Shown: positions 9,485-58,928 of the stretch, in pieces
Position numbering within the stretch: position 1 is the first letter of the stretch
Layout of the letters: each line of letters opens with the position of its first letter
Notes under the pieces: model-generated
The model's input: the letters and a program-made list of their open reading frames with translations, nothing else
The model's database searches: none
What the model was told of the DNA's origin: nothing
Assembly (NCBI GenBank): GCA_947481635.1
Contig: CANKHJ010000003.1
Span: 5,353-69,352 of the forward strand
Length of the DNA stretch: 64,000 nt
Reading direction: 5' to 3'
Source: Bradyrhizobiaceae bacterium
GTDB taxonomy: Bacteria > Pseudomonadota > Alphaproteobacteria > Rhizobiales > Xanthobacteraceae
Made by a program: the position numbers and the translations under genes

Positions 9485-10258
9485 TCACAGAAACCGCGTC
9501 GGCCACATCAGCGTGCGCCACATGTGGGCGGAGGAGCTGTTGTCGAAGCCGAGGCCTTCCTTGGGCTGTTTCCAGTTGCGGCCGATGATGTCGACGAAGT
9601 CTTCGAGCTCGCACTTCACGTTCGGATCGAACGAATAGACATCGTTCACCGTGATCATGCGCGAGGTCATGTACCACTTGTGGTTCCGCGCGCGCTCATA
9701 CTCGGCGTAGATATACGGCTCGGGCTTATAATGCTCGCCGAACAGCTTGATGTATTGATCCGGGTAGGTGTAGCCGACCGACTCGTCGGGGAAAAAGCGC
9801 AGCGACTGGTGCATGCGGATTGCCCAGCTCACCTCTTCATCGACATAAGGTGCAATGAGCTGCTCGCCCCAATAGCCATGATCCGGGCGGATGAAGCCGA
9901 TCACGCCGATGTCGTGCAGCAGGCAGGCCATCACGACCTTTTCCGGCAGGCCTTTGATACGCGCGAGACGCGCGCTCTGCAGCAGATGCTGCGCGGTGAA
10001 GAAGCGCATCGTGAAGAAGTCGATCAGCGTCGGCTTCTCCGGCATCTTCTTCAGCTTCGGGTCGTCGCGCATCACCATGAACTTGCCGGGATTTTCGGCG
10101 CGCAACGCGTTGCCGTTCTCCATCTGCACATGGCCTTCCTTGGCCAGGCGGAACAGAACGGAATTGGTGACGATCGTGTTGAGCTGGTCGGTCAGATCGT
10201 GCTCGTGCTGATCGGCGAGATCAGACAGACTGACGGCTGCGGCTGATTGCGGTCCCAT
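9485..10258 (-). CDS. HD-domain metal-dependent phosphohydrolase-like protein
   Basis: VMACLLHDIGVIGF carries an HD motif. GGAGA lies 5 nt upstream of the ATG. Confidence 0.65.
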   Translation of the reverse strand: MGPQSAAAVSLSDLADQHEHDLTDQLNTIVTNSVLFRLAKEGHVQMENGNALRAENPGKFMVMRDDPKLKKMPEKPTLIDFFTMRFFTAQHLLQSARLARIKGLPEKVVMACLLHDIGVIGFIRPDHGYWGEQLIAPYVDEEVSWAIRMHQSLRFFPDESVGYTYPDQYIKLFGEHYKPEPYIYAEYERARNHKWYMTSRMITVNDVYSFDPNVKCELEDFVDIIGRNWKQPKEGLGFDNSSSAHMWRTLMWPTRFL

Positions 10259-10325
10259 CGGCGTCTCCGGCCTTTCCTAAGGCTATGCGTGATTTTGGCC
10301 CAACCTATTGAAAGGTGGGCGGTTG

Positions 10326-11873
10326 TCAACGCGGCGCGAGCCAGCGTGCACCGGCCAACACGCCAATGGCGGTCAGCCCTGCGAAAACCGCAAGCCAGGT
10401 TTCATTGGCGGCCAGCGCCGCCGTGCCGGCCCAGGAAATTGACGAAAACGCTTCGGCGAAGGTGGCCAAGCGCGACGAGGTCTGGCGGCGGCGGAAATGG
10501 CTGCGCTTGGCCTGCGCCCGGAACCAGAGCTGGATGAAAGTAGCCGAAGTGGCCGCTGCCAGGATGCCCACACCGGCCACCAGGGCGTGGAAGGCCGAAA
10601 ACGGCAGCAAGGCCGCCAGGAACGGCGCGAAAACAATGGCGATACAGCCGAGCACCGCCTCGACCTTGGCGCGGACCACGCGGCGCGGCGTCACCGGGGC
10701 GGTCGCGACCAGCTCCGGGGCGTCCTCGCCCGAGATCGCCAGCCAGGCCAGCCCGCCGGCCAATTGGCCGGACACCATCACCAGCACCGGCACCAGCACG
10801 ATCAGCGCGCCCGAGCCCTCCCGATGGCTGAGCCAGAGCAGCAGCGCCGGCGGCAGCAGGTAGAGCACCTGCATCAGCGACTGCGACATCAGCCACGGGT
10901 CGCGCAGCAGCAGCGTCCATTCCTTGCGCCGCAGCACGCGCGATGGCGACATCTGGCGGAAACGGTAGAAGCTTTGCGTCCGGCGCGACGCCGGGGCCTG
11001 CGAGGCGCCGGCGGCGGCCATGGCGTGGTCGCCGAAGCGGCGCGAGAATATCGCGATCGAGAAACCAATCGCCAGCAGGCAGGCCGCTACGACGACTGAG
11101 AGCGCAAAGGGATCGCCGAGCATCGCGCGCGCCGGCAGCCACAGCGGGCTGTCGATCGATGGCAACCCGTCGGACAGCGCCCCGGTCTCGAACAGATAGA
11201 GGCGCGACAGCGTGCCGTAGGACAGGATCGCCGCGATCTGGAGGCCGATCACGAAGGACGCACCGATTACCGCGGCGACGATCTGCGCCAGTAGCCGCGT
11301 ACGGCGGGGACCGAACATCCGGAACAGTGCAACTGTAATCGCAATCGCGATCGCGGCGGCGGCGACGCCGAGCGCCAGTACCACGCCGTAAGCGGCGATC
11401 CAGCGCGCGCCACCGCGCAGCACTAGGATATTGATGAACGGCGACGCGATCAGCACCGACATCAGCCCGACCGAGCAGGCCACCGCCGCGAGCCGCACCG
11501 CGAAGACGACGCGCGACGCCACCGGCGAAGAAAGGATCAGGTCGAGATCGGAGCGTGCATAGAAGGCGCGGGTCACCGATTCCATCGCCTGCGACAGCAC
11601 CAGGCACCATGACAGCAGTGCGGCGCCCGAGATGATCACGAGCGCGTCGTGATTGTCTGGGCCGACCTTGGCGTGCTTGCCGACCATCGAATTGGCGAGG
11701 AAATGCATGAACACCGCGAACAGCGCGAGACCGATCACGACATTGCGCGTGCGCCAGCGCTGGCCGGCGGTCATCATCGAGAACCAGTCACGCCAGGCAA
11801 TCCGCGCCTCGTGGCGGGCAAACCAAGCCATGGTGCCGGTGTTGCTGGCCGCGGACACTAGAGCGCGATCCAT
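10326..11873 (-). CDS. Polytopic membrane protein, putative permease partner of the upstream ABC ATPase
   Basis: The 515-aa protein has many hydrophobic segments. It lies co-directionally 67 nt downstream of the ABC ATPase gene. Confidence 0.6.
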   Translation of the reverse strand: MDRALVSAASNTGTMAWFARHEARIAWRDWFSMMTAGQRWRTRNVVIGLALFAVFMHFLANSMVGKHAKVGPDNHDALVIISGAALLSWCLVLSQAMESVTRAFYARSDLDLILSSPVASRVVFAVRLAAVACSVGLMSVLIASPFINILVLRGGARWIAAYGVVLALGVAAAAIAIAITVALFRMFGPRRTRLLAQIVAAVIGASFVIGLQIAAILSYGTLSRLYLFETGALSDGLPSIDSPLWLPARAMLGDPFALSVVVAACLLAIGFSIAIFSRRFGDHAMAAAGASQAPASRRTQSFYRFRQMSPSRVLRRKEWTLLLRDPWLMSQSLMQVLYLLPPALLLWLSHREGSGALIVLVPVLVMVSGQLAGGLAWLAISGEDAPELVATAPVTPRRVVRAKVEAVLGCIAIVFAPFLAALLPFSAFHALVAGVGILAAATSATFIQLWFRAQAKRSHFRRRQTSSRLATFAEAFSSISWAGTAALAANETWLAVFAGLTAIGVLAGARWLAPR

Positions 11874-11894
11874 CGCACTCTAGCCTTTTGCTTG

Positions 11895-11941
11895 AGCATG
11901 ATCTTTTCGGAAAACCGGGGTCCACTTTTCCGGATCATGCT
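11895..11941. repeat. Nested-palindrome REP-like element between the ABC ATPase and permease genes
   Basis: Outer inverted repeat AGCATGATC / GATCATGCT encloses an inner CGGAAAA / TTTTCCG repeat around the core AACCGGGGTCCACTT. A related core occurs at 48.87 kb. Confidence 0.6.
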
Positions 11942-12714
11942 TACGCCGCCTGCGCCCGCTCGGCGATGAGCGCGAGGAAGGTATCCTCCAGGCTGCGCGC
12001 CTTGTCGGCATCGCGGCCGTTGGTCTTTTCCGAAAGCTCGTGCAGTTCCTGCAAGGTGCCTTCCGCGATCAACTTGCCGCGCGCGATCACCCCTATGCGG
12101 TCGGCCATCCGTTCGGCGACTTCGAGGATATGTGTGGTCATGATCACGGTGCCGCCGGCGGTGACGCGCTCGCGCAGCACGTCCTTCACCTGGCGCGCCG
12201 AAGCGGCATCGAGGCCGGTGAGCGGTTCGTCGAGAATGATCAGGCGCGGGTCATGCACCAGCGCGCCGGCCAATGCCACTTTCTGACGCATGCCGCGCGA
12301 AAATCCCTCGCAGCGCTCATGCGCATGCGGCCCGAGCCCAAGCAGCGCGATCAGATCGCGGGCGCGGGTCTCGGCGCCCCGCGCATCGATGCCCCAGAGG
12401 CCGGCGACGAATTCGAGATATTCGTAAGGCGTGAGCTTGTCATAGATCATCGGCTCGTCGGACACCCAGGCGAGGATGCGCTTGGCCTCGACCGGATCGC
12501 GCCGCGCGTCGATCCCGAACACCGAGATCGCGCCGGCGTCAGGCTGCATCAGCCCGGCGACCATGCGCAAAGTGGTGGTCTTGCCGGCCCCGTTGGGGCC
12601 AAGCAGCGAATAGAATTCGCCGGCGCGTACCGTGAGGTCGAGTTGGTCGACCGCGGGGCGGTCGAACCGCTTCACCAGGCCGCGGATTTCGAGGGCAGGA
12701 AGGGCTGGGGTCAT
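11941..12714 (-). CDS. ABC transporter ATP-binding protein
   Basis: Walker A GPNGAGKTT, signature SRGMRQKV and Walker B LIILDEP are present. Confidence 0.9.
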   Translation of the reverse strand: MTPALPALEIRGLVKRFDRPAVDQLDLTVRAGEFYSLLGPNGAGKTTTLRMVAGLMQPDAGAISVFGIDARRDPVEAKRILAWVSDEPMIYDKLTPYEYLEFVAGLWGIDARGAETRARDLIALLGLGPHAHERCEGFSRGMRQKVALAGALVHDPRLIILDEPLTGLDAASARQVKDVLRERVTAGGTVIMTTHILEVAERMADRIGVIARGKLIAEGTLQELHELSEKTNGRDADKARSLEDTFLALIAERAQAA

Positions 12715-12884
12715 GATGCCCTCAGGCTAGCCGAGAGAAGTTTCGCCGCGGTGAATGCCGCCACAAAAACCGGCGATGCCCCGGAAATCGCACGGAAATT
12801 TGAGTTGATTCACTGTGCCTTGCTCCGCCCACGGCTTGTTTTGGGAATCGCACTGGCCGATCCTTGCCATTTGGGGGAGTTCCA

Positions 12885-13085
12885 ATGAGCGGCGTCGCCG
12901 TCTTTCTCTGGCTGGTCGGGGCCTACGTGGCGATCGGCATCGCCATGGCGCTGGCCTTCGTGACGATCGGGCTGGGGCGCGTCATGCCGCATACGCGCGT
13001 GACGACCGGCGCGCGCATCCTGTTCGCGCCCGGCGCCGCCGCGCTGTGGCCGCTGATCCTGTCGCGCTGGCTGGCCGCGCGATGA
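12885..13085 (+). CDS. Small two-helix membrane protein (66 aa), unknown function
   Basis: GGGGGAG lies 6 nt upstream of the ATG at 12885. There are two hydrophobic stretches. The stop overlaps the next ATG (ATGA). Confidence 0.4.
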   Translation: MSGVAVFLWLVGAYVAIGIAMALAFVTIGLGRVMPHTRVTTGARILFAPGAAALWPLILSRWLAAR

Positions 13086-13180
13086 GGCGTTCGCTGCGCA
13101 GGACGCACCGCAGGCTCTGGCCGCTGCTGCTGATCGTGGTGGGGCTCGGCTTCGCGCTCGCTTTGGGCCTGCGCTCGTGA
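13082..13180 (+). CDS. Mini membrane peptide (32 aa), tentative
   Basis: A basic N-terminus is followed by one TM helix (LWPLLLIVVGLGFALALGL). It overlaps upstream by ATGA and downstream by GTGA. Confidence 0.25.
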   Translation: MRRSLRRTHRRLWPLLLIVVGLGFALALGLRS

Positions 13181-14217
13181 GCGCCGGCTTCCAGGCGGTG
13201 CAATGGGGCCGCGCGAAATATATCTACGACGCAATTCTGCTCGGCTGCGTCACGGCCTATGTCGGCGGCTTTGCCCTGATCGCGTGGCGGGTCACGCCGC
13301 CGAAAAATCTTGCCGATCAGATCGACATCTTCATCCGTGCTTTTGGAAGCTGCGCCTTCCTGATGCTGACGGCGATCCTGTGCATCGGGCCGCTGGCGCG
13401 GCTCGACCAGCGCTGCCTCAAGGCATTGTATAACCGCCGTCATTTCGGCGTGCTGACATTCCTGGTCGCGGCGACGCATGCCTGGCTGATGATCGAGTGG
13501 TACCTCGCGCAGGGCAACCTGCAAAACCTCGGCAACGAACTCATCACCTGGGCGGATTACGCCAAGTTCATCGGCTTCCCGTTCAAGACGCTCGGCATGG
13601 CCGCGCTACTGGTGCTGTTCCTGATGGCGGCGACCAGCCATGACTTCTGGCTCGCCTTCCTCGGTCCGAAGGTGTGGAAGGCGCTGCATATGGCGCTTTA
13701 TGTTGCCTATGGGCTGGTGGTGATGCATGTCGCGCTCGGCATCATGCAATATGAGCGCACGCCGTTGGTCCCGATCATGCTGATCGGGGGCTTCGGCGCC
13801 GTCGTGACGCTGCACCTGATCGCGGCCTTTCGCGAACACAAAGCCGACCGCGGCAAACCCGCGCGCGACGGCTGGCTCGCGGTCGGGCCGCCGCTCTCGA
13901 TTCCCGACAAATGCGCGCGCATCGTAGTGGCCGACGGCGGCGAGCGCATCGCGGTGTTCCGCGACGGCACGCAGGTCGGTGCGCTGACCAACCTCTGCGC
14001 GCATCAGAATGGACCGCTCGGCGAAGGACGCATCATCGACGGCTGTGTCACCTGCCCGTGGCATGGGTGGCAATACCGGCTGGCCGACGGACGCGCGCCG
14101 GAACCCTTCACCGAAAAGGTCGCGACGCATCGCGTTCGGCTGGTCGACGGCATCATCGAGGTCGACGTCAATCCATTGCCGCCGGGCACGCCAGCGGCCA
14201 TTCAGGTTCCGCTCTAG
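13177..14217 (+). CDS. Ferric-reductase-type (heme-b) six-TM domain fused to a C-terminal Rieske [2Fe-2S] domain
   Basis: There are six hydrophobic helices. His pairs occur in helix 3 (RHFGVLTFLVAATH) and helix 5 (LHMALYVAYGLVVMH). The C-terminus carries CAH-x16-CPWH. Confidence 0.75.
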   Translation: MSAGFQAVQWGRAKYIYDAILLGCVTAYVGGFALIAWRVTPPKNLADQIDIFIRAFGSCAFLMLTAILCIGPLARLDQRCLKALYNRRHFGVLTFLVAATHAWLMIEWYLAQGNLQNLGNELITWADYAKFIGFPFKTLGMAALLVLFLMAATSHDFWLAFLGPKVWKALHMALYVAYGLVVMHVALGIMQYERTPLVPIMLIGGFGAVVTLHLIAAFREHKADRGKPARDGWLAVGPPLSIPDKCARIVVADGGERIAVFRDGTQVGALTNLCAHQNGPLGEGRIIDGCVTCPWHGWQYRLADGRAPEPFTEKVATHRVRLVDGIIEVDVNPLPPGTPAAIQVPL

Positions 14218-14230
14218 TCAAGGACACGGC

Positions 14231-15337
14231 ATGGCAGGCGAAGATTGGATCGATCTCGGCGCGAGTGCGGAGCTGTCGACGATGCCGCTGCGGCCGGTGA
14301 CGGCGCGTAGCACCAGCATCGCGCTCTCGTATCGCGACGGTGAATTCGGGGCGGTGTCGAATACCTGCAATCACGTTGGCGGTCCGCTCGGCGGCGGCAC
14401 GCTCGACGGCGACTACATCGTCTGCCCGTGGCATGCGTGGAAATTCCATCGCCGCAGCGGCGCGGGCGAGCCGGGCTTCGAGGATGACTGCGTGCCGTCC
14501 TATCCGGTCAAGGTCGAGAACGGCCGCGTGCTGGTCAATCTCGCCGCCGCGAGCAAACGCAACAGGAAGCCGCATGCGGCGCATCCGCTGACGCGCGATG
14601 TCACGCGCGCGCCGGGAAAGCTCCGGCTCGCGGGCATCTCGACCACCGTGATGGATCCCGGCCTGCCACGCTTCTCGGGATCGGACCATCTGCTCGACGC
14701 CGCGCTGACGGAAGCTCGCACGCTCGGAGCGGAGACACAGATCATCCGCCTCAACGACCTGAAATTCCGTGCCTGCGAGGGCTATTATTCCAAGGGCGCA
14801 CAGGCCTGCACCTGGCCCTGCTCGATCACCCAGATGGATTCGACCGACCAGATGGACCAGGTCTACGAGGCGCTGGTGCATTGGGCCGACGCGATCATCG
14901 TGGCGTCGCCGATCCGCTGGGGCGCTGCGTCATCGCTCTATTTCAAGATGGCCGAGCGGCTCAATTGCGTGCAGAATGCGATCACGACGCGTAACCGTGT
15001 CCTGATCCGCAACAAGGTGGCCGGCTTCATCATTGTCGGCGGTCAGGACAATATCCAGGGCGTCGCCGGACAAATGCTCGGCTTCTTCGCCGAGCTCGGC
15101 TTCATCTTTCCGCAATTTCCCTATATCGCCCATTCGCGCGGCTGGTCGCGCGAGGATATGGAACGGAATATCGAAGTGGTGCGGACATCGAAAGAACTGG
15201 CCGAAGGCGCTTCGATGCTGGCGAAACGCTGCCTCGATCTCGCCGCACACCTGATCGCGCAGGACGAGGCGCCCGCCTCGATCGAACGCGGCGGTCGCAA
15301 AGCCCATCTGATCGATACCGATGCATCCATTGGGTGA
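14231..15337 (+). CDS. Rieske [2Fe-2S] domain fused to an NADPH-dependent FMN-reductase/flavodoxin-like domain
   Basis: The N-terminus carries CNH-x16-CPWH. The C-terminal part (LRLAGISTT...ADAIIVASPIRWG...GFIIVGGQDN) is typical of Isf/FMN-reductase-like flavoproteins. The ATG at 14231 is in frame with the 14009..15337 ORF. Confidence 0.75.
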   Translation: MAGEDWIDLGASAELSTMPLRPVTARSTSIALSYRDGEFGAVSNTCNHVGGPLGGGTLDGDYIVCPWHAWKFHRRSGAGEPGFEDDCVPSYPVKVENGRVLVNLAAASKRNRKPHAAHPLTRDVTRAPGKLRLAGISTTVMDPGLPRFSGSDHLLDAALTEARTLGAETQIIRLNDLKFRACEGYYSKGAQACTWPCSITQMDSTDQMDQVYEALVHWADAIIVASPIRWGAASSLYFKMAERLNCVQNAITTRNRVLIRNKVAGFIIVGGQDNIQGVAGQMLGFFAELGFIFPQFPYIAHSRGWSREDMERNIEVVRTSKELAEGASMLAKRCLDLAAHLIAQDEAPASIERGGRKAHLIDTDASIG

Positions 15338-16115
15338 CGTGACCGACGATTTATGGACCGAGGTTCCGGCACTGTTGCGTACCGGGACAGCGCCGCTGCC
15401 CGCGCCGTGGGAAGGCCGGTTCGGCCCGCTGCGCGCGGGCGTGACCGACGATCTCGTCGTGGTCGCGCAAATGGGCCAATCGCTTGACGGCCGCGTCGCG
15501 ACGCGCAGCGGGCATTCGCACTATATCAACGGACCGAGTGGTCTGGCGCATCTGCACCGGCTGCGCGCGGTGACCGACGCGGTGGTGGTCGGCGTCGGCA
15601 CCGCCATCGCCGACGATCCGCAGCTCACCGTGCGCCACTGCGCCGGCCCCTGCCCGGCCCGCGTGGTGATCGATCCGCGCGGCCGGCTGCCGGATACGGC
15701 GCGGCTGCTCGCAGATGACGGCGCGCGCCGCATCGTCGTGACCGGCAACAATCTCGGGCGGACCTGGCCGGCTGGCGTCGAGGCGATCGCGCTGGCGCGC
15801 GAGAACGGCTCGATCGAGCCGGCCGAAATTCTCGCCGCGCTGGCGCAACGCGGCCTCACGCGCATCCTGATCGAAGGCGGCGGCAACACCGTCGCGCGCT
15901 TTCTGGTGGCGCGATGCCTCGACCGGCTGCATATCGTGGTCGCGCCGCTGATCTTCGGCAGCGGACGGCCGAGCCTCTCGCTGGCGCCGATCGACAATGT
16001 CGACGAAGCGCTGCGGCCGCCGATGGGAATCCACGACCTCGGCGGCGAAGTGCTGTTCGACTGCGACTTGGCGGCCTACCGGCGCCCGATCGGGCGCGCA
16101 AAAAAATCGATGTGA
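15321..16115 (+). CDS. RibD C-terminal-domain (DHFR-like fold) reductase
   Basis: Motifs MGQSLDGRVAT, HRLRAVTDAVVVGVGTAIADDPQLTVR and ILIEGGGNT are present. The gene overlaps the upstream gene by 17 nt. Confidence 0.75.
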   Translation: MHPLGDVTDDLWTEVPALLRTGTAPLPAPWEGRFGPLRAGVTDDLVVVAQMGQSLDGRVATRSGHSHYINGPSGLAHLHRLRAVTDAVVVGVGTAIADDPQLTVRHCAGPCPARVVIDPRGRLPDTARLLADDGARRIVVTGNNLGRTWPAGVEAIALARENGSIEPAEILAALAQRGLTRILIEGGGNTVARFLVARCLDRLHIVVAPLIFGSGRPSLSLAPIDNVDEALRPPMGIHDLGGEVLFDCDLAAYRRPIGRAKKSM

Positions 16116-16879
16116 CCGACGCGCAGCTCGCTTGATCCCGCGCTGATCAATTCGCGGCGGCGCGTGAACCAGCCGGCGACAATGGCAAGCGATGTATCCA
16201 TGCTGCGCGCGATACCGGCATAGCCGTTCAACAATTCAAGTTGGATGGCCTTGTCCGAACGATCGAGCACCCAATCGCTCTCTTTGAGATCGACCTTGTA
16301 TCCGACCCGGCGGAAACGCCGCACCGCCGTCATGGCGGCTTCGGGTCCAAGCGCTGCGCCGAAGCCTTTCTCGCTACGCTGATGCCGGTTCACCGCGGAG
16401 ACGACAGTGGCATCCCCATCCTCCTCCGGCGTGAAAATGATGCGGCCGTCATAGTTCAGCGTTGCGTAGAACGGGAGATGCCGCGCGGCCAATTCGGTCA
16501 CGAGACGATCGAGCCATTCCTGCGACACGAGATCGAGCAATGCCGAGGTGGTGACGAGATCGACCGCCCCATCCAGCGCCGCCTCGAGATCATGCGCAAG
16601 ATCCACCGGCGTGGTCGCGACAGCCACGCGGGATGAAGGCGGCGCGGACACGCGCGCCAGCAGGCTGAGGTCGTTGTCGACCAGCCGCCAGCGCTGATGC
16701 ATCGGCAGGTGGGGGGACAGGGCGCGCATCGCGGCGCCGGTCCCGCTGGCGAGATCAACGACTGAAATCGAATGACGTTCAGAGGCCCAGGCTTTGACCG
16801 CCTCCAGCAGCAGGGGGTTGCGCGCACGCTCATCATACGGTTCGCGCAGCGCCAGCCAGTCTGACGAAAAGCCGCTCAA
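16076..16879 (-). CDS. Class I SAM-dependent methyltransferase
   Basis: VVDLASGTGAA is a motif-I-like sequence. The gene overlaps the upstream GT4 gene by 4 nt. Confidence 0.7.
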   Translation of the reverse strand: MSGFSSDWLALREPYDERARNPLLLEAVKAWASERHSISVVDLASGTGAAMRALSPHLPMHQRWRLVDNDLSLLARVSAPPSSRVAVATTPVDLAHDLEAALDGAVDLVTTSALLDLVSQEWLDRLVTELAARHLPFYATLNYDGRIIFTPEEDGDATVVSAVNRHQRSEKGFGAALGPEAAMTAVRRFRRVGYKVDLKESDWVLDRSDKAIQLELLNGYAGIARSMDTSLAIVAGWFTRRRELISAGSSELRVGHIDFFARPIGRR

Positions 16880-17928
16880 ATCACCGCCTCGATCGCGCGC
16901 GCGACGCGCGCGGCGGCGTCGCTCCAGGTCGGGAAATTTTGCGCGGCCTTACGCGCCGCAGCGGAAAACCTCCGTCGCTCGTCAGGGCTTGCGATCAGGC
17001 GGCGCAACGCCGCGGCCAGTGCCGGAACGTCGCCAGGGGGGACCAGAAGGCCGGCGCCGTGCGGCACCGCCTCAGGAATAGCGCCCCCGGTGGTGCCGAT
17101 CACCGGCAGGCCATGCGCCAGCGCTTCGGTATAGGCCATACCATAGCCTTCGTAATGCGAGGCCAGCACGAACAGATCCGCGCCATCGTAAAGCTCGGCG
17201 AGACGTTCATGCGAGACACCGCCGGCGAGAACAACGCGGTCGCCCAATCCAAAATGGGCGATGTCGGCCTTGAGCTGACGCAGCATCTCGGCACTGCGGT
17301 CGGGATCCCCGGCGATGATGAGGTTCCAAGGCAGGTCGGTCAGCGTCGCCAGCGCCGCGACCAGCAGATCATGCCCCTTGCGCGGCACGATGGCGCCGAC
17401 GCTGAGCAGCGATACGCTATCCGCGTGGCTGCCGCGCGCGGCCTGGAAACGGTCGGTGCCAGGCAGCGCAACGGTGATGCGCCCGCGCGGCACGCCGTAA
17501 CTCTCGACCAGGATGCGCTCGGTGGTCACGCTGGTCGCGATCACGGCGCGCGCACAGGCAAGCGCGTCGCGCTCGCTATTAAGCAAACGCGCGGCATCGG
17601 CCCTGCTCCATCCCGTCTCCAATGCGAGCGGATGATGCACCAGCGCGATCAGCGGATGCGAAAGCTGCAAGTCTGCGACAATCTCCGGAATGAGGCCGTA
17701 GACCAGACCATCGATCAGCAGCGGGGTGCCTGAAGGCACCGATGCGAGTTGCTGCCGTGTGGTCGCGAGCGTCGCCGTGTCGGGCCGCGGATAACCGCTG
17801 CCGACATCGAGGAAATCCGCGTCCCAGCCGATACCTCGCAGCTCCTCGATCACGCGACGGTCATAAGCATAGCCGCCAGTCAGTTGCGCGTAGTCGCCGG
17901 AAATGCCGAACGCAACCCGCTTCACCAC
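16876..17928 (-). CDS. GT4-family (group 1) glycosyltransferase
   Basis: The C-terminal half contains PRKGHDLL and LFVLASHYEGYGMAYTEALAHGLPVIGT (an EX7E-type motif). Confidence 0.8.
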   Translation of the reverse strand: MVKRVAFGISGDYAQLTGGYAYDRRVIEELRGIGWDADFLDVGSGYPRPDTATLATTRQQLASVPSGTPLLIDGLVYGLIPEIVADLQLSHPLIALVHHPLALETGWSRADAARLLNSERDALACARAVIATSVTTERILVESYGVPRGRITVALPGTDRFQAARGSHADSVSLLSVGAIVPRKGHDLLVAALATLTDLPWNLIIAGDPDRSAEMLRQLKADIAHFGLGDRVVLAGGVSHERLAELYDGADLFVLASHYEGYGMAYTEALAHGLPVIGTTGGAIPEAVPHGAGLLVPPGDVPALAAALRRLIASPDERRRFSAAARKAAQNFPTWSDAAARVARAIEAVI

Positions 17929-18323
17929 AAGGCGGCCTCATACCACGCGCGCGCCACATGGGATTCCGAGATCGTGATGCGGATGGCGGCGAGTTCGCGG
18001 CCCTCACGGCCCAAGGCGCCGGAACGTGCGGCGGCCGCCAGATGATCGAAGATATGCTTGGTCAGGAACTCGGTAGTGGTGTTCTTGCCTTCCAGGCCGG
18101 GCGCGGTATCGAGATTGCGATAATTCAGCGGCGCCAGCGTTTCCTTGAGCACCTCATGCGCGCGGCCGATGTCGATAACGATGCCGTTGGCATCGAGTGC
18201 CTCGGACATGAATGCGGCATCGATGACGAAGGTCGCGCCATGCAGCGCCTGCGCCGGGCCGAACACCGCCCCGCGAAATGAATGGGCGATCATGATGTGG
18301 TCACGGACTTCGACGGCAAACAC
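17922..18323 (-). CDS. 6-pyruvoyl-tetrahydropterin synthase / QueD-family protein, atypical
   Basis: FAVEVRDHIMIAHSF...LHGATFVID has the family architecture. A GTG start at 18323 has GAGG 8 nt upstream. The longer 166-aa ORF is rejected. Confidence 0.65.
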   Translation of the reverse strand: MFAVEVRDHIMIAHSFRGAVFGPAQALHGATFVIDAAFMSEALDANGIVIDIGRAHEVLKETLAPLNYRNLDTAPGLEGKNTTTEFLTKHIFDHLAAAARSGALGREGRELAAIRITISESHVARAWYEAALW

Positions 18324-18348
18324 GGAAAAGACCTCGGAGTTTAAGTGG

Positions 18349-19326
18349 CTAATAATCGATGCGCTGGCACAAAACGCCGCTGCCAGGCGCAAGGATGTGC
18401 GGCAGGCGCACCGGCAGGTCAACGAAATTCACCGCCGGCGCGATCAGGCTTTCGAGAACCGGATCGGCCAACAGCGCGAGCGCGGCTGCGAGGCGGCGGC
18501 GATGCGACCAGCGCGCGCGATGCGATGGCGCGACCTGCCCGACCTGGCTCGACATGAGCTTCAGGCGGCGGCTGTGATATGCGCCACCGAGCGGCAGCGT
18601 CACGTGATCGGCGCCATACCAGCTGATATCGAGGATCGTTGCCTCGTCGCCCGCGAGCGTCAGCGCGGTGGCCAGCCCCTTGCCGCTGCCGCTCGCATGG
18701 ACCACCAGATCGCAATCCCCCGGCGCATCTTCCGGAAGGGCGAAGCCGACCCCAAGCGTGGTTGCCAGCGCGGCGCGCGCGGGGTTGACGTCGATCAGCG
18801 TGACCCGCGCACCGGGCAGCTTTCCGCATAGCCAGGCGACCAGTGCCCCGACCACGCCGGCCCCGATGACGGCAATGTGATCGGCCGGCCCGGGCGCGGC
18901 ATCCCACACCGCATTCAGCGCCGTCTCCATGTTGGCCGCTAGAATGGCGCGGGCGGGCGGCACGTTGTCGGGGAGCGGCACCGCCGCGTCCGAGGGAATG
19001 ACGAAGCGGGTCTGGTGTGGGTGGAGCACAAAGACCTTGCGGCCGATCAATGCGGACGGGCCGGCCTCGACCACCCCGACGGTGGAATAGCCGTATTTCA
19101 CCGGGAACGGAAAGCTGCCGCCCATGTACGGAGCACGCATTCGCTGGTGTTCGCTGGGCGGCACCCGCGCCGCGAAAATCAGCGCCTCGGTGCCGCGGCT
19201 GACCGCGCTATGCAGCGCCGCCACGCGGACATCGCCGGCGCCGACCGGCGCCACCGCCTCCTCCCGCAACTCGACGCGGCCGGGGGCCGAGTACCATAAT
19301 GCGCGCGCCGTATCGTTTGCTGCCAC
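18349..19326 (-). CDS. Zn-binding/medium-chain dehydrogenase-reductase (MDR) family protein
   Basis: GxGxxG is present (VIGAGVVGALVAW) with MDR-like layout. I chose the GTG start at 19326. The Arg/Pro-rich N-terminal extension of the 488-aa ORF is rejected. Confidence 0.7.
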   Translation of the reverse strand: MAANDTARALWYSAPGRVELREEAVAPVGAGDVRVAALHSAVSRGTEALIFAARVPPSEHQRMRAPYMGGSFPFPVKYGYSTVGVVEAGPSALIGRKVFVLHPHQTRFVIPSDAAVPLPDNVPPARAILAANMETALNAVWDAAPGPADHIAVIGAGVVGALVAWLCGKLPGARVTLIDVNPARAALATTLGVGFALPEDAPGDCDLVVHASGSGKGLATALTLAGDEATILDISWYGADHVTLPLGGAYHSRRLKLMSSQVGQVAPSHRARWSHRRRLAAALALLADPVLESLIAPAVNFVDLPVRLPHILAPGSGVLCQRIDY

Positions 19327-19400
19327 ACTCGCCCCATCATGGTTTTGCGGTTGCCGACCGGCTATATCCTGCCCGAAGAATACGGAATTCGGAACCGAAG

Positions 19401-21923
19401 ATGCTGGAGCGCACACAGGCGCATATGTCAGTGGGCGCAACGCGGTCACTTGCCGCCCGGCGGGCGCTGTTTGCCGCGCTGGTGGCCGCGACCTGCGTGG
19501 CGGTGCTGGCGCTGTTCGCCCTGGTCTTGTCCCCCGGCGGAATCGGCCTCGTCGACGGCGTGATGATCGCGCTGCTGGCGATCCCGCTGCCATGGTCGGC
19601 AATCGGCTTCTGGAACGCGACCATCGGCCTGATCCTGATGCGCTTCGCCCGCGATCCGGTCGGCGCTGTATGCCCGCCCGCAATCCGCGTGCATGACGAC
19701 GCGCCGGTGCTGGCCTCGACCGCAATCCTGATGTGCATCCGCAACGAGGATCCGGATGTCGTGTTGCGCAACCTCGACGTGATGCTGACGCAACTCGCGG
19801 CGACCGGCGAGGCACGGCGGTTTCATCTCTATGTGCTGAGCGATACCAACCTGCCGGCTATCGCGGCGCAAGAGGATGCTCGGTTCGGCGCCTTGACCGC
19901 ACAATGGCTCGAGCGCGTCGCGATCACCTACCGGCGACGCGACAGCAACGAGGGGTTCAAAGCCGGCAACATCAAGGATTTCTGCGAGCGCTGGGGCGCG
20001 CAGCACGACTTCGCGATCACGCTCGACGCCGACAGCGTGATGCCGGCCGCCGCGATGCTGCGCCTGGTGCGCATGATGCAGAACGAGCCGCGCATCGGCA
20101 TCCTGCAAGGCCTGGTGATCGGGATGCCCTCGACCAGCGCCTTTGCACGGCTGTTCCAGTTCGGCATGCGGCTCGGCATGCGCTCCTACACGCTCGGAAG
20201 CGCGTGGTGGCAGGGCGATTGCGGGCCCTATTGGGGGCACAATGCGATCCTGCGGCTTGCGCCGTTCATTGCCCATTGCCAGATCCCTGACACGCCGGCG
20301 CGCGGACCGCTCGGCGGTCCGATCCTGAGCCACGACCAGATCGAAGCGGTGCTGATGCGCCGCGCCGGATATGAAGTGCGGGCAGTGCCGCGCGAGGACC
20401 TCGGCTGGGAGGAGAACCCGCCAACGCTGCTCGAATTCCTGCGCCGCGACCTGCGCTGGTGTCACGGCAACATGCAATATTGGCGCTTCCTGCGGATGCC
20501 GGGCCTGTTGCCGACCAGCCGAGTGCAACTCGTGCTGGCGATGCTGATGTTTGTCGGATCGCCGGTCTCGGCAGTGATGGTGCTGCTGATCTGCGCGAGG
20601 CTGCTATTGTCCAACGAGCCGTTCCTGCGCGTCGACGCGGCGATCGGGTTATTCGCCGTGATGCTGACGATGGCTTTCGCGCCCAAGATCGCAACCGTAA
20701 TCGACGTGCTGATGCGCGCCGACCTGCGCAAGGGCTATGGCGGCGCACCGCGTTTCATCGCGAGTGTGGCCGCAGAGACGGTATTCGCGACGTTGCTTGC
20801 GCCGGTGATGTGGTTCGCGCACTCGATCTATCTCGGCGGGCTCCTGCTCGGGCGCACCATTGGCTGGAACGCGCAGACGCGTAGCGACCATGCGGTGCCG
20901 TTCTCGCTCGCTGTACAGACTTTGTGGCCGCACACATTATATGGCGGCCTGGTCCTGGCGATGATCGCCGCAAGCGCACCGGGCGCCCTGCCCTACGCGC
21001 TCTATTTTGTCGCTGGACTGGCCTTGGCCATTCCGTTTGCGATGCTGACGGCGTCACCCGCCCTCGGACGCCTTCTTGTCCGTACCGGCCTTGGACGGCT
21101 GCCGGAGGAAACCGACCCGCCGCCCGCGCTGCGGGCGCTGCGGCTGCCCGCCATCGAAGCAGCGTCATCGTCGGCGAGACTGCGGGACAGGATCCGGAGC
21201 GCGCGCGGCGTGATCCGTTCGCTGCGCATCTATTACGGCCATCGCGCGCGACGTGAGGCGATGGACCGCCTCTACGCGCAATTCATCAAACCGGGCGATC
21301 TGGCCTTCGACATCGGCGCCCATGTCGGCGACCGCATTGGGTGTTTCCGGCGGCTCGGAGCCAAGGTGGTCGCTGTCGAGCCCCAGCCGCCGCTGATACG
21401 GACGCTACGCCTGCTCTATGGCCGCGATGCCGCGGTCGCGATCGAGCCAGCAGCAGTCGGGGCCGTGGCTGGCACGACGCTGCTCAGGCTCAATGTCGAC
21501 AATCCGACGATCTCGACCGCGTCCGAGGACTTCATTGCCGCGGCGAATGATGGAGCGGGCTGGCAGGGCCAGACCTGGGATCGCACGATCGAGGTCGCGA
21601 CCACTACGCTCGATGACCTGATCGCACGTCACGGCATGCCGGCCTTCATCAAGATCGACGTCGAGGGTTTCGAACTGCAGGCGCTGACGGGGCTGAATCA
21701 TTCCGTCGCTGCGCTGTCATTCGAGTTCACCACGATCCAACGCGACGTCGCGCTGGCCTGCGTCGACCGTTGCGTTGCCTTGGGTTACCGTTCATTCGGC
21801 GCGGCGCTCGGCGAAAGCCAGGTGTTGATCGAACGGCGCCGCAGCGCCGAAGAGATCAAAAGCTGGCTAACGGGCCTGCCCGAAGACGCCAATTCCGGGG
21901 ACATTTATGCGACCCTGGCGTGA
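19401..21923 (+). CDS. opgH: OpgH/MdoH-like GT2 glucan glucosyltransferase fused to a C-terminal FkbM-family methyltransferase domain
   Basis: The GT2 part carries LSDTN, DADS and RRDLRWCHGNMQYW plus multiple TM helices. The C-terminal roughly 200 aa carry FDIGAHVGD and IKIDVEGFELQAL (FkbM). It is one continuous frame. Confidence 0.75.
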   Translation: MLERTQAHMSVGATRSLAARRALFAALVAATCVAVLALFALVLSPGGIGLVDGVMIALLAIPLPWSAIGFWNATIGLILMRFARDPVGAVCPPAIRVHDDAPVLASTAILMCIRNEDPDVVLRNLDVMLTQLAATGEARRFHLYVLSDTNLPAIAAQEDARFGALTAQWLERVAITYRRRDSNEGFKAGNIKDFCERWGAQHDFAITLDADSVMPAAAMLRLVRMMQNEPRIGILQGLVIGMPSTSAFARLFQFGMRLGMRSYTLGSAWWQGDCGPYWGHNAILRLAPFIAHCQIPDTPARGPLGGPILSHDQIEAVLMRRAGYEVRAVPREDLGWEENPPTLLEFLRRDLRWCHGNMQYWRFLRMPGLLPTSRVQLVLAMLMFVGSPVSAVMVLLICARLLLSNEPFLRVDAAIGLFAVMLTMAFAPKIATVIDVLMRADLRKGYGGAPRFIASVAAETVFATLLAPVMWFAHSIYLGGLLLGRTIGWNAQTRSDHAVPFSLAVQTLWPHTLYGGLVLAMIAASAPGALPYALYFVAGLALAIPFAMLTASPALGRLLVRTGLGRLPEETDPPPALRALRLPAIEAASSSARLRDRIRSARGVIRSLRIYYGHRARREAMDRLYAQFIKPGDLAFDIGAHVGDRIGCFRRLGAKVVAVEPQPPLIRTLRLLYGRDAAVAIEPAAVGAVAGTTLLRLNVDNPTISTASEDFIAAANDGAGWQGQTWDRTIEVATTTLDDLIARHGMPAFIKIDVEGFELQALTGLNHSVAALSFEFTTIQRDVALACVDRCVALGYRSFGAALGESQVLIERRRSAEEIKSWLTGLPEDANSGDIYATLA

Positions 21924-57499: not shown

Positions 57500-57662
57500 T
57501 GCGTTCCGTCCCTGACGGCACTCCTTGCCGCCGTCACAGCGTGTTTTGATGCGTTCCAGTGTTCCGGAAATCCGGAAATGGATCAAGGCGCACTGGCTTG
57601 GTTTCCAAGCCACCCTCCGGCCGATATCTTTCGGCCACGCAAGAGGTTCGGAGGACTTATCG

Positions 57663-58928
57663 ATGTTTTCCAAGGAAGACAACGAAGCAATGACGCGGAC
57701 CAGCCCCGGCACCAAGGCCGGCAAGCTGCTGCGCCAATATTGGCAGCCGGTCGCGCTCCTCGCCGACCTGCCGCCGAACGGGGCGCCGCTACCGCTCAAG
57801 GTGATGGACGAGGACCTGGTGCTGTTCAAGGATGAGACCGGCCGGCTCGGCCTGCTCGGCCTGAATTGCCCGCATCGCGGCGCCGACCTCAGCTACGGCC
57901 GCGTCGAAGGCGGCGGCTTGCGCTGCATCTACCACGGCTGGGTGTTCGACGTGACCGGCCAATGCCTGGAACAGCCGGCCGAGCCGCGCGGCCGTACCTA
58001 TTGCCAGCACGTGAAGCATCTCTCCTATCCGGTGACCACCGGTGGTGGGATGGTGTTCGCCTATATGGGCGAAGGCGAGCCTCCGGTATTGCCGCAGCTC
58101 GAATGCCTCACGGCCGCTGATGATCATCTGGCGATGTGGAAGTTCCGCGAGCGCTGCAATTACCTCCAGGGGCTCGAAGGCGACATCGACCCGTTCCACC
58201 TGAACTATCTGCACCGTGCGATGAAGAGCAAGGACGCGCGCGACGCGCCCGGCTCGTCCGACCAGTATTACGATTTCTACACCCGCGGCACGCCGCGCCT
58301 CGAGGTGGATCGCACCCGTTACGGCCTGCGCATCTTCACGATGCGTGAGCTGGACGAGCGCGCCTATCTGCGCGTCACGAATTTCATGATGCCGAATGTC
58401 GCGATCGTCGCCGGCCCGACCGGAGAGGACGGCTACACGCTGCTGTGGCATGTGCCGGTGACCGACGAAGTCCACATCAAGTATATGCTGAACTACAAGC
58501 GCAGCGGACCGATCGACCAGACCGGCCTGAAAAAGGCCTATGACATGCATGTCATTCCGGGCACCAACCTGGAGCCTCGCCGCCACAAGGAAAACCGCTG
58601 GCTGCAGGACCGCGAGGAAATGAAAACCTCCTGGTATGCCGGCCTCGGCCCGTCCTTCTCGGTGCATGACAATTGGGTGACCGAGAGCATGGGCCCGATC
58701 TACGACCGCACCAAGGAGCGGCTCGGCTACAGCGACATGGCCGTGGTCGCGGCGCGGCGCCAGATTCTCGCCGGCATTGCCGACATGGACGCGGGCAAGG
58801 AACCGGTCGGCCGTCATCACGACGAGGAATCCGCCAAGCTAAAAGAGCTTGTAGTCCGCTCCTATCTGGTCGAAGACCGCAACGACTATAAGAAGGACTT
58901 CGTGGCTCAGACCGAAGCCGCCGAATAA
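57663..58928 (+). CDS. Rieske non-heme-iron oxygenase, alpha subunit (phthalate/KshA-type, homo-oligomeric class)
   Basis: The Rieske motif is CPHRGADL...CIYHGW. The iron-binding motif is DPFHLNYLH (D-x2-H-x4-H). Confidence 0.8.
   Translation: MFSKEDNEAMTRTSPGTKAGKLLRQYWQPVALLADLPPNGAPLPLKVMDEDLVLFKDETGRLGLLGLNCPHRGADLSYGRVEGGGLRCIYHGWVFDVTGQCLEQPAEPRGRTYCQHVKHLSYPVTTGGGMVFAYMGEGEPPVLPQLECLTAADDHLAMWKFRERCNYLQGLEGDIDPFHLNYLHRAMKSKDARDAPGSSDQYYDFYTRGTPRLEVDRTRYGLRIFTMRELDERAYLRVTNFMMPNVAIVAGPTGEDGYTLLWHVPVTDEVHIKYMLNYKRSGPIDQTGLKKAYDMHVIPGTNLEPRRHKENRWLQDREEMKTSWYAGLGPSFSVHDNWVTESMGPIYDRTKERLGYSDMAVVAARRQILAGIADMDAGKEPVGRHHDEESAKLKELVVRSYLVEDRNDYKKDFVAQTEAAE

Follow-up and report, generated by a model that had tools for sequence, protein, structure and literature searches.

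A membrane electron-transfer module built around a Rieske-fused, MsrQ-type cytochrome b

Here, we show that five packed genes of an alphaproteobacterium include real genes for a membrane electron-transfer module that is uncharacterised yet widespread. This finding rests on the domains identified, on conserved ligands and gene order, and on gene fusions. Judged from gene order, the conserved core is made of three genes (p1-p2-p3), which encode two very small membrane proteins and a cytochrome b with its own Rieske domain. We favour, by a modest degree, the view that the locus is a pared-down form, specific to its clade, of a widespread transmembrane module, in which p1-p2-p3 would form a complex, p4 would be its partner and p5 would lie outside. 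We found no characterised system with the p3/p4 architecture in the literature or among database names, in agreement with an earlier interpretation of this DNA (hereafter the sequence-only reading).

Results

The genes lie as follows in the window, i.e. the whole stretch of 64 kb that was analysed.

12885-13085, plus strand: p1, 66 aa; ORF with GGGGAG upstream (RBS)
13082-13180, plus strand: p2, 32 aa; ATGA overlap with p1
13177-14217, plus strand: p3, 346 aa; GTG start; GTGA overlap with p2
13219-13833, plus strand: transmembrane region of p3, residues ~15-219; six helices
13873-14163, plus strand: Rieske domain of p3, residues ~233-329; ferredoxin/NirD-type
14231-15337, plus strand: p4, 368 aa; 13-nt gap after p3
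15321-16115, plus strand: p5, 264 aa; 17-nt overlap with p4

The sequence-only reading had described five packed plus-strand ORFs joined by these overlaps and this gap. All its coordinates match, and public assemblies of the same organism (L089, L090) have the same five genes called identically, with p1 at 66 aa and p5 at 100% identity. The histidine pairs and Rieske motifs that it had listed are likewise all present in the p3 and p4 translations where it placed them. No terminator or promoter signal rises above chance across the five genes.

By its sequence, p3 joins a six-helix cytochrome b of the MsrQ/YedZ ferric-reductase-domain (FRD) type to a C-terminal Rieske domain. FRD proteins have six transmembrane helices, and helices 2-5 form the bundle that binds the cofactors. 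Pfam PF01794 (Ferric_reduct) matches residues 57-181 with 46.7 bits (gathering cut-off 28), and the translation has six hydrophobic segments, just as the earlier interpretation had expected. The AlphaFold2 (AF2) model of a long form, P0127, which is 51% identical to p3 (pLDDT 90, pTM 0.89), has helices at 12-39, 45-73, 84-107, 133-149, 153-189 and 193-222. In MsrQ, H91 and H164 are the heme ligands, and R77, R78, S135, W147 and H151 form the FMN pocket (PMC12525009). Profile alignment of p3 with E. coli MsrQ (hhalign, 96% probability) maps the former to p3 H101 and H184, the latter to R87, R88, S154, W167 and H171, and sets p3 H89 opposite MsrQ Leu79. The counterparts of MsrQ H91/H164 in NOX2 are H115/H222, its surface-proximal heme ligands. 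Against the MsrQ equivalog NF003831 of NCBIfam, p3 scores 41.3 bits, for a cut-off of 130.

These positions are strongly conserved. Among 283 p3-family sequences, R87, R88, H89, H101, S154, H155, W167, H171 and H184 are each at least 96% conserved, and the equivalents of the FMN pocket (R87, R88, S154, W167, H171) at least 97%. The ligands of the outer heme are found in 278 (H101) and 281 (H184) of the 283; one outlier, P0181, has both changed to Tyr. The sequence-only reading depended on the conservation of the helix-3 and helix-5 histidines, i.e. the pairs H89/H101 (H-x11-H) and H171/H184 (H-x12-H), and all four are at least 97% conserved in the family. One outer heme on H101/H184 is well supported, and the membrane domain looks more like the single-heme, flavin-binding MsrQ than like a classic two-heme protein. 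A putative inner pocket would be lined by R87, R88, H89, S154, H155, W167 and H171. Its cofactor may be either a flavin or a second heme.

The histidine pairs had previously been taken as ligands of two b hemes. This inference is unsupported because H-x11-H differs from the canonical motif and Arg87 holds the site of the inner histidine. Bis-heme NOX/FRE proteins have H-x13-H in TM3, where p3 has an invariant Arg87, and H89 lies 12 residues before H101, versus 14 for the canonical inner histidine. According to PMC3591440 and PMC12525009, MsrQ Arg77 falls where NOX has its inner-heme histidine, and single-heme MsrQ and STEAP both have an Arg there. One might nevertheless picture a dedicated five-gene operon with a NOX/FRE-like bis-heme p3 (H89/H171 inner, H101/H184 outer), with NAD(P)H as the donor to p4 and with p5 taking part in the function. 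The conservation of all four histidines fits this picture, as do the invariant H89 and H155, which MsrQ lacks and which lie in the bundle at cytoplasmic level and could ligate a second heme. The genes are tightly packed, with no terminator or promoter signal above chance, and probably co-transcribed here. Yet, with Arg87 placed as in single-heme proteins, a Leu at the MsrQ position of H89, p4 behaving as an accessory and p5 co-conserved with another gene set (see below), we consider such an operon improbable.

The C-terminal domain of p3 matches PF00355 on residues 233-309 (52 bits, cut-off 20.3). Its ligands, C274-A-H276-x16-C293-P-W-H296, are kept in 271-277 of the 283 family sequences. In the PDB its profile matches the Rieske ferredoxins CarAc, NDO ferredoxin and BphA3 (E 1e-13 to 1e-14), to which the P0127 model aligns with TM 0.8-0.89 (Foldseek), the CarAc-CarAa complex 2de5 being among the structural matches. 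A second Rieske domain lies in p4, a soluble protein (residues 6-91, 51.1 bits, cut-off 20.3; ligands C46-N-H48-x16-C65-P-W-H68), and its PDB matches are also Rieske ferredoxins. FMN_red (PF03358) follows on residues 150-300 (44.7 bits, cut-off 24); this flavodoxin part has only remote relatives in the PDB, 5mji, a 'BRAMP domain protein' (E 1e-6), and WrbA (E 0.14), none of its close homologues being characterised. The earlier description of p4 as a Rieske domain followed by a flavodoxin/FMN-reductase-like domain therefore stands, both families being above cut-off. Pfam also agrees that p3 and p4 each have a Rieske domain, and finds no oxygenase catalytic domain in either. A cytoplasmic place for both Rieske domains is supported by the distribution of positive charges (positive-inside), by the FRD topology of six helices and by the lack of a signal peptide in p4. 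The choice of NAD(P)H as donor to p4 is unsupported beyond the name of its Pfam family, and the FMN_red fold takes in proteins without NAD(P)H dependence too. A third, unrelated Rieske oxygenase lies in the window at 57525-58928, so the background of Rieske genes in a single window is not negligible.

We surveyed gene order around ~84 p3 loci, which represent six phyla or more; the p3 family itself occurs in at least 592 species-level genomes. p1 has two transmembrane helices and the motif G..R.L..PG..LWP...L.RW (P49, W55 and P56 are invariant in the alignment); in 68 of 83 loci, belonging to different phyla, tblastn places a relative of it immediately before p3. A p2-like peptide is upstream of p3 in 78/84 loci from several phyla (HMM). 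It has one transmembrane helix, and its N-terminus keeps a basic/His/Trp motif, M-[KR]-R-x-H-R-x-x-H-x-x-x-W, in which the window's copy has Leu for the first His. Acidobacteriota, KSB1 and Bacteroidota have versions longer by ~110 aa, and p1 and p2 are fused into a single ORF in six loci. In the window, the overlaps couple p1, p2 and p3 in translation. The curated families say little about either protein: p1 matches none in Pfam or NCBIfam, and p2 has a sole Pfam match, LiaI-LiaF-like_TM1, at 21.3 bits for a cut-off of 27. The two very small transmembrane proteins noticed earlier are therefore real, given their conservation upstream and their fusions. On these comparisons they are conserved core subunits and not artefacts of high GC.

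The survey does not bear out the co-conserved five-gene operon of the sequence-only reading: p1-p2-p3 are kept, p4 comes and goes, and p5 travels with other genes. Directly after p3, p4 is found in 8 of the 16 close loci (the window, WIN, and L002, L005, L008, L011, L013, L014 and L084); the 63 more distant loci all lack it there. In the remaining eight close loci p3 is followed by unrelated genes, often on the opposite strand, and three p4 orthologues (L085-L087; 77-79% identical) have no p3 in their neighbourhood but genes for DUF5996/ATP synthase or PQQ-repeat proteins. Could p1-p2-p3 be self-contained and p4 an unrelated flavoprotein that is downstream by chance? In that case the p3 Rieske domain would get its electrons elsewhere, e.g. 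from a soluble reductase such as Fre, which serves MsrQ. The scattered p4 orthologues and the eight loci without p4 point that way. Still, we hold this to be unlikely. The spacing between p3 and p4 is tight (13-100 nt), on the same strand, and recurs in several species, and in other clades the operon position of p4 is taken by Rieske-fused GltS-like and TPP enzymes. Moreover, the Rieske domains of p4, of the TPP type and of p3 are mutually detectable relatives (29-35% identity). In our preferred reading p4 is a clade-specific accessory and the most likely candidate for the cytoplasmic redox partner of p3.

Other neighbours recur more broadly. Three non-homologous redox enzymes with an N-terminal Rieske domain are found beside the module, usually on the same strand: the FMN_red type in 8 loci, and the GltS-like FMN and/or TPP-enzyme types in 23. 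Their recurrence supports a hand-off from Rieske to Rieske. Directly downstream in 63/84 loci is a gene for a periplasmic tandem-OB Cys/His protein of ~250 aa, which in forms of ~600 aa is fused to p3. The AF2 model of the long form confidently shows the FRD, the Rieske domain, a seventh transmembrane helix and then beta-barrels. The tandem-OB domain is absent from the window (tblastn) and missing from its clade. E. coli MsrP also has no counterpart in the 64-kb window (tblastn, best E 0.59), as the sequence-only reading had noted, nor in the annotated neighbourhoods L001, L002 and L084.

Discussion

These results suggest how the module might work. p1, p2 and p3 would assemble into a three-subunit membrane complex. 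Electrons would start from the flavin of p4, pass to its [2Fe-2S] cluster and from there to that of p3; they would then move from the p3 Rieske domain to the inner cofactor of the membrane domain, a flavin as in MsrQ and STEAP or a second heme with non-canonical ligands, to the outer b heme on H101/H184 and finally to a periplasmic acceptor. In most relatives, this acceptor would probably be the tandem-OB Cys/His protein, which is anchored in the membrane and either encoded next to p3 or fused to it. We infer the contact between p3 and p4, the direction of the electrons, the donor to p4 and the acceptor. The hand-off would have a precedent in oxygenases whose Rieske cluster receives its electrons from a Rieske ferredoxin, as CarAa does from CarAc.

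Outward flow is assumed from MsrQ, STEAP and NOX. Sequence results do not fix the direction, and electrons might go inward: the heme domain would draw them from the quinol pool or from a donor in the periplasm, and the Rieske domain of p3 would hand them on to cytoplasmic enzymes with a Rieske tag (p4 here, GltS-like ones elsewhere). GltS-type FMN domains are typically reductive enzymes. Furthermore, PMC12525009 reports that MsrQ binds ubiquinone, a proposed electron acceptor, so quinone coupling is present in the superfamily. We nevertheless judge inward flow very unlikely. According to PMC3591440 and PMC12525009, all characterised FRD members, i.e. NOX, FRE, STEAP and MsrQ, send electrons outward. 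POX-like TPP enzymes donate electrons. Ferredoxin-type Rieske clusters and flavins are low-potential, which favours outward flow.

The closest known system is MsrQ (YedZ) of the E. coli MsrPQ pair. It shares with p3 PF01794, the six-helix topology, the outer-heme ligands, the FMN-pocket residues and, presumably, electron transfer from cytoplasm to periplasm. But p3 has a fused Rieske domain, the extra invariant H89 and H155 and two mini-subunits, which MsrQ lacks, it has no MsrP partner in the window, and its equivalog score is 41 bits against 130. STEAP and NOX/FRE proteins resemble p3 in fusing a transmembrane FRD core to a cytoplasmic electron-input domain; the input is an FNO-like or FNR-like NADPH/FAD domain in STEAP and NOX/FRE and a Rieske [2Fe-2S] domain in p3. 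STEAP has the same Arg as p3 at the inner TM3 site and holds a single heme and a flavin, whereas the NOX H-x13-H is missing from p3.

Two surveys came near to this module. The FRD-Rieske fusion was catalogued in 2013 and has never been characterised: among the electron-transfer domains fused to bacterial FRD, a figure legend of Zhang et al. (2013, PLoS One 8:e58126) includes Rieske, labelled M4. This is the domain combination of p3, listed there as an architecture only, with no partner genes or experiments. The MsrQ-like section of Meheust et al. (2021, eLife 10:e66878) describes extracytosolic systems with ApbE flavinylation, in which a PF01794 protein has a modular cytoplasmic donor and an extracytosolic acceptor. 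Unlike the p3 locus, those clusters have ApbE, FMN-binding proteins and NAD-binding or NuoF-like donors, and that section mentions no Rieske fusion, p1/p2 or tandem-OB protein.

In three-component Rieske oxygenase chains (CarAd, CarAc, CarAa; BphA4, BphA3, BphA1), electrons go from a flavoprotein to a Rieske ferredoxin and then to a second Rieske domain, as proposed here for p4 and p3, whose Rieske domains have their closest sequence relatives among the ferredoxins of these chains. The terminal Rieske domain belongs to a membrane cytochrome in p3 versus a non-heme-iron oxygenase in those chains.

Among bacterial members of the FRD superfamily, biochemical work has dealt mainly with MsrQ and, more recently, also with NOX enzymes such as SpNOX. 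The p3 family would add the injection of electrons into a membrane cytochrome by a Rieske [2Fe-2S] cluster, instead of a pyridine-nucleotide domain or a free flavin reductase. Rieske-to-Rieske docking, if true, would account for three orphan families of fusion proteins together; two mini-subunits and a periplasmic OB-fold protein of Cys/His type would be newly defined as well. One might speculate further, though we find this wider view rather doubtful, that p1-p2-p3 are the core of an unrecognised broad electron conduit, with the p3 Rieske domain as a universal socket for Rieske enzymes of the FMN_red, GltS-like FMN and POX-like TPP/FAD types. The acceptor would be a new periplasmic tandem-OB Cys3/His class, which the window's Hyphomicrobiales clade would have lost while gaining p4, and H89, H155 and the His/Trp motif of p2 could form a cofactor site absent from MsrQ, STEAP and NOX.

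The fifth gene, p5, encodes a RibD_C protein (pyrimidine reductase, DHFR-like fold; Pfam, 136 bits). In two loci that have neither p3 nor p4 (L092, L093) it accompanies the methyltransferase, GT4 and PTPS genes, and only two relatives' loci have it near p3 (L005, L013), with a GTP cyclohydrolase II gene between p4 and p5. Despite its 17-nt overlap with p4, these gene neighbourhoods make p5 a part of the adjacent RibD_C/methyltransferase/GT4/PTPS cluster and not of the redox module. The RibD_C gene is thus to be assigned to a neighbouring cluster of pterin/pyrimidine type.

A Rieske-fused cytochrome at the centre of the gene block

The sequence-only reading had proposed five packed plus-strand genes at 12885-16115, and both the arrangement and the junctions were borne out by ORF translation and junction reading:

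12885-13085, +, p1, mini-membrane protein, 66 aa, preceded by GGGGAG
13082-13180, +, p2, mini-membrane protein, 32 aa, ATGA overlap with p1
13177-14217, +, p3, ferric-reductase-domain (FRD) cytochrome fused to a Rieske domain, 346 aa, GTG start, GTGA overlap with p2
14231-15337, +, p4, Rieske plus flavodoxin-like FMN_red protein, 368 aa, 13-nt gap after p3
15321-16115, +, p5, RibD_C pyrimidine reductase, 264 aa, 17-nt overlap with p4

These five genes, at exactly these lengths, are also the gene calls in public assemblies of this organism (L089-L091; GCA_947479345.1, ENA scaffolds), where p5 is 100% identical. A scan for promoters and terminators across 12400-16400 gave counts not above shuffled expectation, and no Rfam element matched in 10000-20000.

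Pfam confirmed the domains predicted for p3 and p4. The cytochrome carries Ferric_reduct (residues 57-181, 46.7 bits, cut-off 28) and Rieske (residues 233-309, 52 bits, cut-off 20.3), and p4 carries Rieske (residues 6-91, 51.1 bits, cut-off 20.3) and FMN_red (residues 150-300, 44.7 bits, cut-off 24). As had been claimed, neither has an oxygenase catalytic domain in Pfam. Both Rieske domains keep the full C-x-H-x16-C-x-x-H ligand set and are of the ferredoxin/NirD type, their closest solved relatives being the CarAc, NDO, BphA3 and toluene dioxygenase ferredoxins. NCBIfam matches, to Rieske ferredoxins, NirD and MsrQ, are all below threshold. Six hydrophobic segments can be read from the p3 sequence, with positive charges at the N-terminus, in the TM2-3 and TM4-5 loops and in the linker after TM6, a pattern that puts the Rieske domain in the cytoplasm.

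The family of p3 is large. A word-indexed search returned about 8000 clusters, of which the best 120 all combine PF01794 and PF00355 at 70-98% identity, and scanning the 50%-identity representatives exhaustively with HMMER yielded 231 clusters at E <=1e-30. Relatives are encoded in at least 592 GTDB species representatives, across Alpha- and Betaproteobacteria, Planctomycetota, Acidobacteriota, Gemmatimonadota, Nitrospirota, KSB1 and Bacteroidota. Databases name them "Rieske 2Fe-2S domain-containing protein" or give composite COG strings, and name the relatives of p1 and p2 "hypothetical protein". Full-text searches turned up a single relevant paper, Zhang et al. 2013 (PMC3591440), which names Rieske as one of the domains that extend FRD proteins in bacteria (architecture M4) and gives neither partner genes nor experiments for it. 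The earlier remark that no characterised system with this architecture was known stands for experimental accounts, but the fusion itself was catalogued in 2013.

Heme site and inner pocket of p3

p3 belongs to the FRD superfamily. Profile alignment of its family with E. coli MsrQ (96% probability) gave the correspondences listed below, with the MsrQ roles taken from Carpentier et al. 2025 (PMC12525009), where FMN binding is shown to require R77 and R78.

Table. Residues of p3, their MsrQ counterparts and the role of the position
H101, H91: outer heme ligand
H184, H164: outer heme ligand
R87, R77: FMN binding; at the inner-heme His position of NOX/DUOX
R88, R78: FMN binding
H89, L79: no role described in MsrQ
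S154, S135: flavin pocket
W167, W147: flavin pocket
H171, H151: flavin pocket

Among 283 family sequences, R87, R88, H89, H101, S154, H155, D156, W158, W167, H171 and H184 are each at least 97% conserved, including the four helix-3 and helix-5 histidines (H89, H101, H171, H184) singled out from the sequence. In one outlier both H101 and H184 are replaced by Tyr, a paired change consistent with the two sharing one heme. Another has Gln at H171, the residue that STEAP has at this position. The outer heme is thus well supported by alignment and conservation.

The bis-heme signature proposed for these four histidines (H-x11-H, H89/H101, and H-x12-H, H171/H184) survives only in part. The outer pair, H101 and H184, aligns with the MsrQ heme ligands. 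The inner pair fails the canonical bis-heme test, since Arg87 occupies the NOX/DUOX inner His position in the profile alignment and H89 falls on MsrQ L79. Zhang et al. 2013 (PMC3591440) describe three canonical histidines and a TM3 Arg in YedZ and regard this pattern, which p3 shares, as the diagnostic mark of short forms with a single heme. Yet the p3 family has two invariant histidines without counterpart in MsrQ, H89 and H155, and these could ligate a non-canonical second heme. Judged from the alignment, the inner cofactor may be either a flavin or a heme.

p3 is expected to work like MsrQ and STEAP, and we think it very likely that it carries electrons across the membrane in the manner of MsrQ and that its Rieske domain is functional. 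It is not an MsrQ orthologue, because the equivalog score is far below cut-off (41 bits, cut-off 130), there is no MsrP partner, and p3, unlike MsrQ, has an extra domain and extra subunits. The absence of an MsrP-like partner had been noted from the sequence, and tblastn against the 64-kb window agreed.

Probable small subunits and a candidate periplasmic partner

We compared gene neighbourhoods in 80 GTDB loci, metagenome look-up loci and the window. In 68 of 83 loci tblastn found a relative of p1 immediately upstream of p3, with P49, W55 and P56 invariant in the alignment. A p2-like peptide stands between p1 and p3 in 78 of 84 (HMM); it has the motif M-[KR]-R-x-H-R-x-x-H-x-x-x-W at its N-terminus and a single TM helix after it. 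In six loci (L019, L046, L053, L071, L076, L078), about 350 nt upstream of the p3 start, the two are fused in one ORF that encodes about 120 aa and three TM helices. The two very small membrane proteins of the sequence-only reading are therefore genuine, and upstream conservation and fusion argue that they are core subunits, which we consider probable. No credible Pfam or NCBIfam family was found for either, only sub-threshold noise of the holin, COX7C and LiaI-LiaF TM kinds. In Acidobacteriota, KSB1 and Bacteroidota loci (L049, L054, L060, L067, L072, L073, L081) p2 is extended at its C-terminus by about 110 aa that presumably lie in the periplasm.

When the neighbouring ORFs were clustered de novo, a further gene appeared immediately downstream of p3 in 63 of 84 loci (L017 7054-7773, L020 7061-7837 and 61 others). 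It encodes a protein of about 250 aa, here called the tandem-OB protein, with one N-terminal TM helix and the motif G-E-I-V-D-x-K-C-x-x-G-x-M-x-P-G-x-G-K-x-H-x-x-C-A-x-x-C, in which C-x12-H-x2-C is invariant and a third Cys nearly so. In many representatives it continues the p3 chain at its C-terminal end, and these fusions are about 600 aa long (P0127, P0134, P0139 and others). The AF2 model of the long form P0127 (pLDDT 90.1, pTM 0.89) runs from the six-helix bundle through the Rieske domain and a seventh TM helix to beta-barrels, and the model of the partner alone (pLDDT 90.6) has two OB-like barrels with a helical Cys/His insert. Foldseek of the partner model against the PDB found nothing at E <1e-3; the weak best matches, a tandem-OB SSB, PriB and YgiW (all E >1e-3), would indicate fold class only. 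The full P0127 model matched only Rieske proteins in the PDB, the FRD and OB parts being swamped. In Pfam and NCBIfam the partner has no credible family, only sub-threshold noise. An RRxF in marine alphaproteobacterial copies prompted the idea of a Tat signal, which we did not adopt because the RR pair is missing from many copies and most fused forms.

The tandem-OB gene is absent from the 64-kb window (tblastn). It is also missing in the closest relatives, 17 loci mostly from Hyphomicrobiales MAGs, in which p3 is 59-73% identical to that of the window.

p4 and other Rieske-tagged enzymes

In this partner-less clade, p4 immediately follows p3 in 8 of the 16 loci with enough sequence for the check (the window's own locus, L002, L005, L008, L011, L013, L014 and L084), and in the other eight p3 is followed by unrelated genes, often on the opposite strand. 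Orthologues of p4 with 77-79% identity occur with no p3 nearby (L085-L087), and p4 was found in none of the 63 loci carrying the tandem-OB gene. p4 is an accessory and not a core component, and whether it is a partner of p3 we judge an even call. It has no signal peptide, and the nearest solved relatives of its flavodoxin part are remote (PDB); literature on one name, "BRAMP" (PDB 5mji), gave irrelevant matches only. The Pfam label "NADPH-dependent FMN reductase" is not evidence for the reductant of the p4 flavin, and the NAD(P)H step suggested earlier stays a hypothesis. The flavodoxin-like domain also holds a conserved C-x10-C-x3-C motif (FRACEGYYSKGAQACTWPCS; window 14780-14830, residues ~184-201), present in the L005 and L013 orthologues and missing from aligned PDB relatives. 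This motif may provide a further site for a metal or cluster, or its cysteines may be redox-active.

Other N-terminal-Rieske proteins, one or two per locus, flank the module in 23 of the 63 tandem-OB loci, mostly from marine Alphaproteobacteria (e.g. L019 3999-5630; L043 1614-3716, minus strand; L026 1739-5408; and about 20 others). One type, about 540 aa, joins Rieske to a GltS-like FMN domain (PF01645); it occurs in 20 loci, shares the strand of p3 in all of them and immediately precedes p1 in 14. Another, about 660 aa, joins Rieske to a TPP enzyme (TPP enzyme N/M/C, POX/ALS-like) and occurs in 16 loci. Five loci have both upstream, on the same strand as p1, p2, p3 and the tandem-OB gene. 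The Rieske domains of p3, p4 and the TPP type are mutually related at 29-35% identity. The Rieske-to-Rieske hand-off suggested earlier finds its best available support here, because three non-homologous Rieske-tagged redox enzymes recur beside the p3 Rieske domain, in counts drawn from phylogenetically non-independent loci. Ferredoxin-oxygenase complexes such as CarAc-CarAa provide a structural precedent. The window has a non-zero Rieske background, with a third Rieske protein unrelated to the module:

57525-58928, +, LigXa-like Rieske oxygenase, 467 aa, Rieske plus LigXa_C

Proposed electron path

Cytoplasmic donor domains feeding FRD cytochromes are already known. Here, p1, p2 and p3 would form a membrane complex in which single electrons enter at the cytoplasmic Rieske cluster of p3, move on by way of the inner site to the outer b heme and leave on the periplasmic side. 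We infer the outward direction by analogy with MsrQ, STEAP and NOX. In the window's clade p4 would be the best candidate donor, with electrons running from the p4 flavin by way of the p4 Rieske cluster to that of p3, and in most relatives the acceptor is plausibly the tandem-OB Cys/His protein. For the chain as a whole we lean slightly in favour. Full-text searches found no published description of the mini-subunits, the tandem-OB partner, the Rieske-tagged enzymes or an MsrQ-like pocket with extra histidines, and these would be what is new beyond the 2013 catalogue of fusions.

p5 and the flanking genes

The DHFR-like reductase recognised downstream of p4 is a RibD_C protein (residues 47-225, 136 bits in Pfam). 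RibD_C orthologues with 67% identity lie beside the same methyltransferase, GT4 and PTPS genes in L092 and L093, with neither p3 nor p4 next to them. L005 and L013 have a minus-strand GTP cyclohydrolase II gene between p4 and p5, so that p5 has its own divergent promoter region there. This gene is missing between them in the window, where p5 now overlaps p4 and is probably co-transcribed with it in this organism. Judged by these neighbourhoods, p5 is not co-conserved with p4 and is outside the redox module. The five genes hence do not hold as the one functional unit first proposed, p4 being accessory and p5 co-conserved with a different gene set. On the p5 side the window carries these genes:

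16076-16879, -, methyltransferase, convergent, 40-nt overlap with the end of p5
16876-17928, -, GT4
17922-18422, -, PTPS
18349-19815, -, ADH-like, 488-aa mechanical ORF
19299-21923, +, family-2 glycosyltransferase and FkbM-type methyltransferase fusion, 874 aa

From 15321 to 19815 the window thus holds a conserved convergent cluster of RibD_C (+) with SAM methyltransferase, GT4, PTPS/QueD-like and Zn-dehydrogenase-like genes (-), accompanied in L005, L013 and L093 by GTP cyclohydrolase II. Its gene content suggests an uncharacterised pathway to a pterin- or pyrimidine-derived compound that is both glycosylated and methylated.

On the p1 side the block is bounded by a divergent gene, itself followed immediately downstream by another:

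11941-12714, -, ABC ATPase
10326-11873, -, 515-aa polytopic membrane protein without Pfam family

The second could be an ABC permease of an unclassified kind. Both genes run divergently from p1 and show no conservation with the module, and we rejected the pair as part of the system, ABC matches elsewhere being of low identity and variably placed.

Two gene models deserve mention. In the ADH-like ORF the N-terminal ~185 aa are rich in Arg and Pro and probably untranslated; the public gene call in the same organism is 301 aa (L090 5090-5995). The glycosyltransferase-FkbM fusion, which adjoins the RibD_C/PTPS cluster, is 840 aa in the public gene call.
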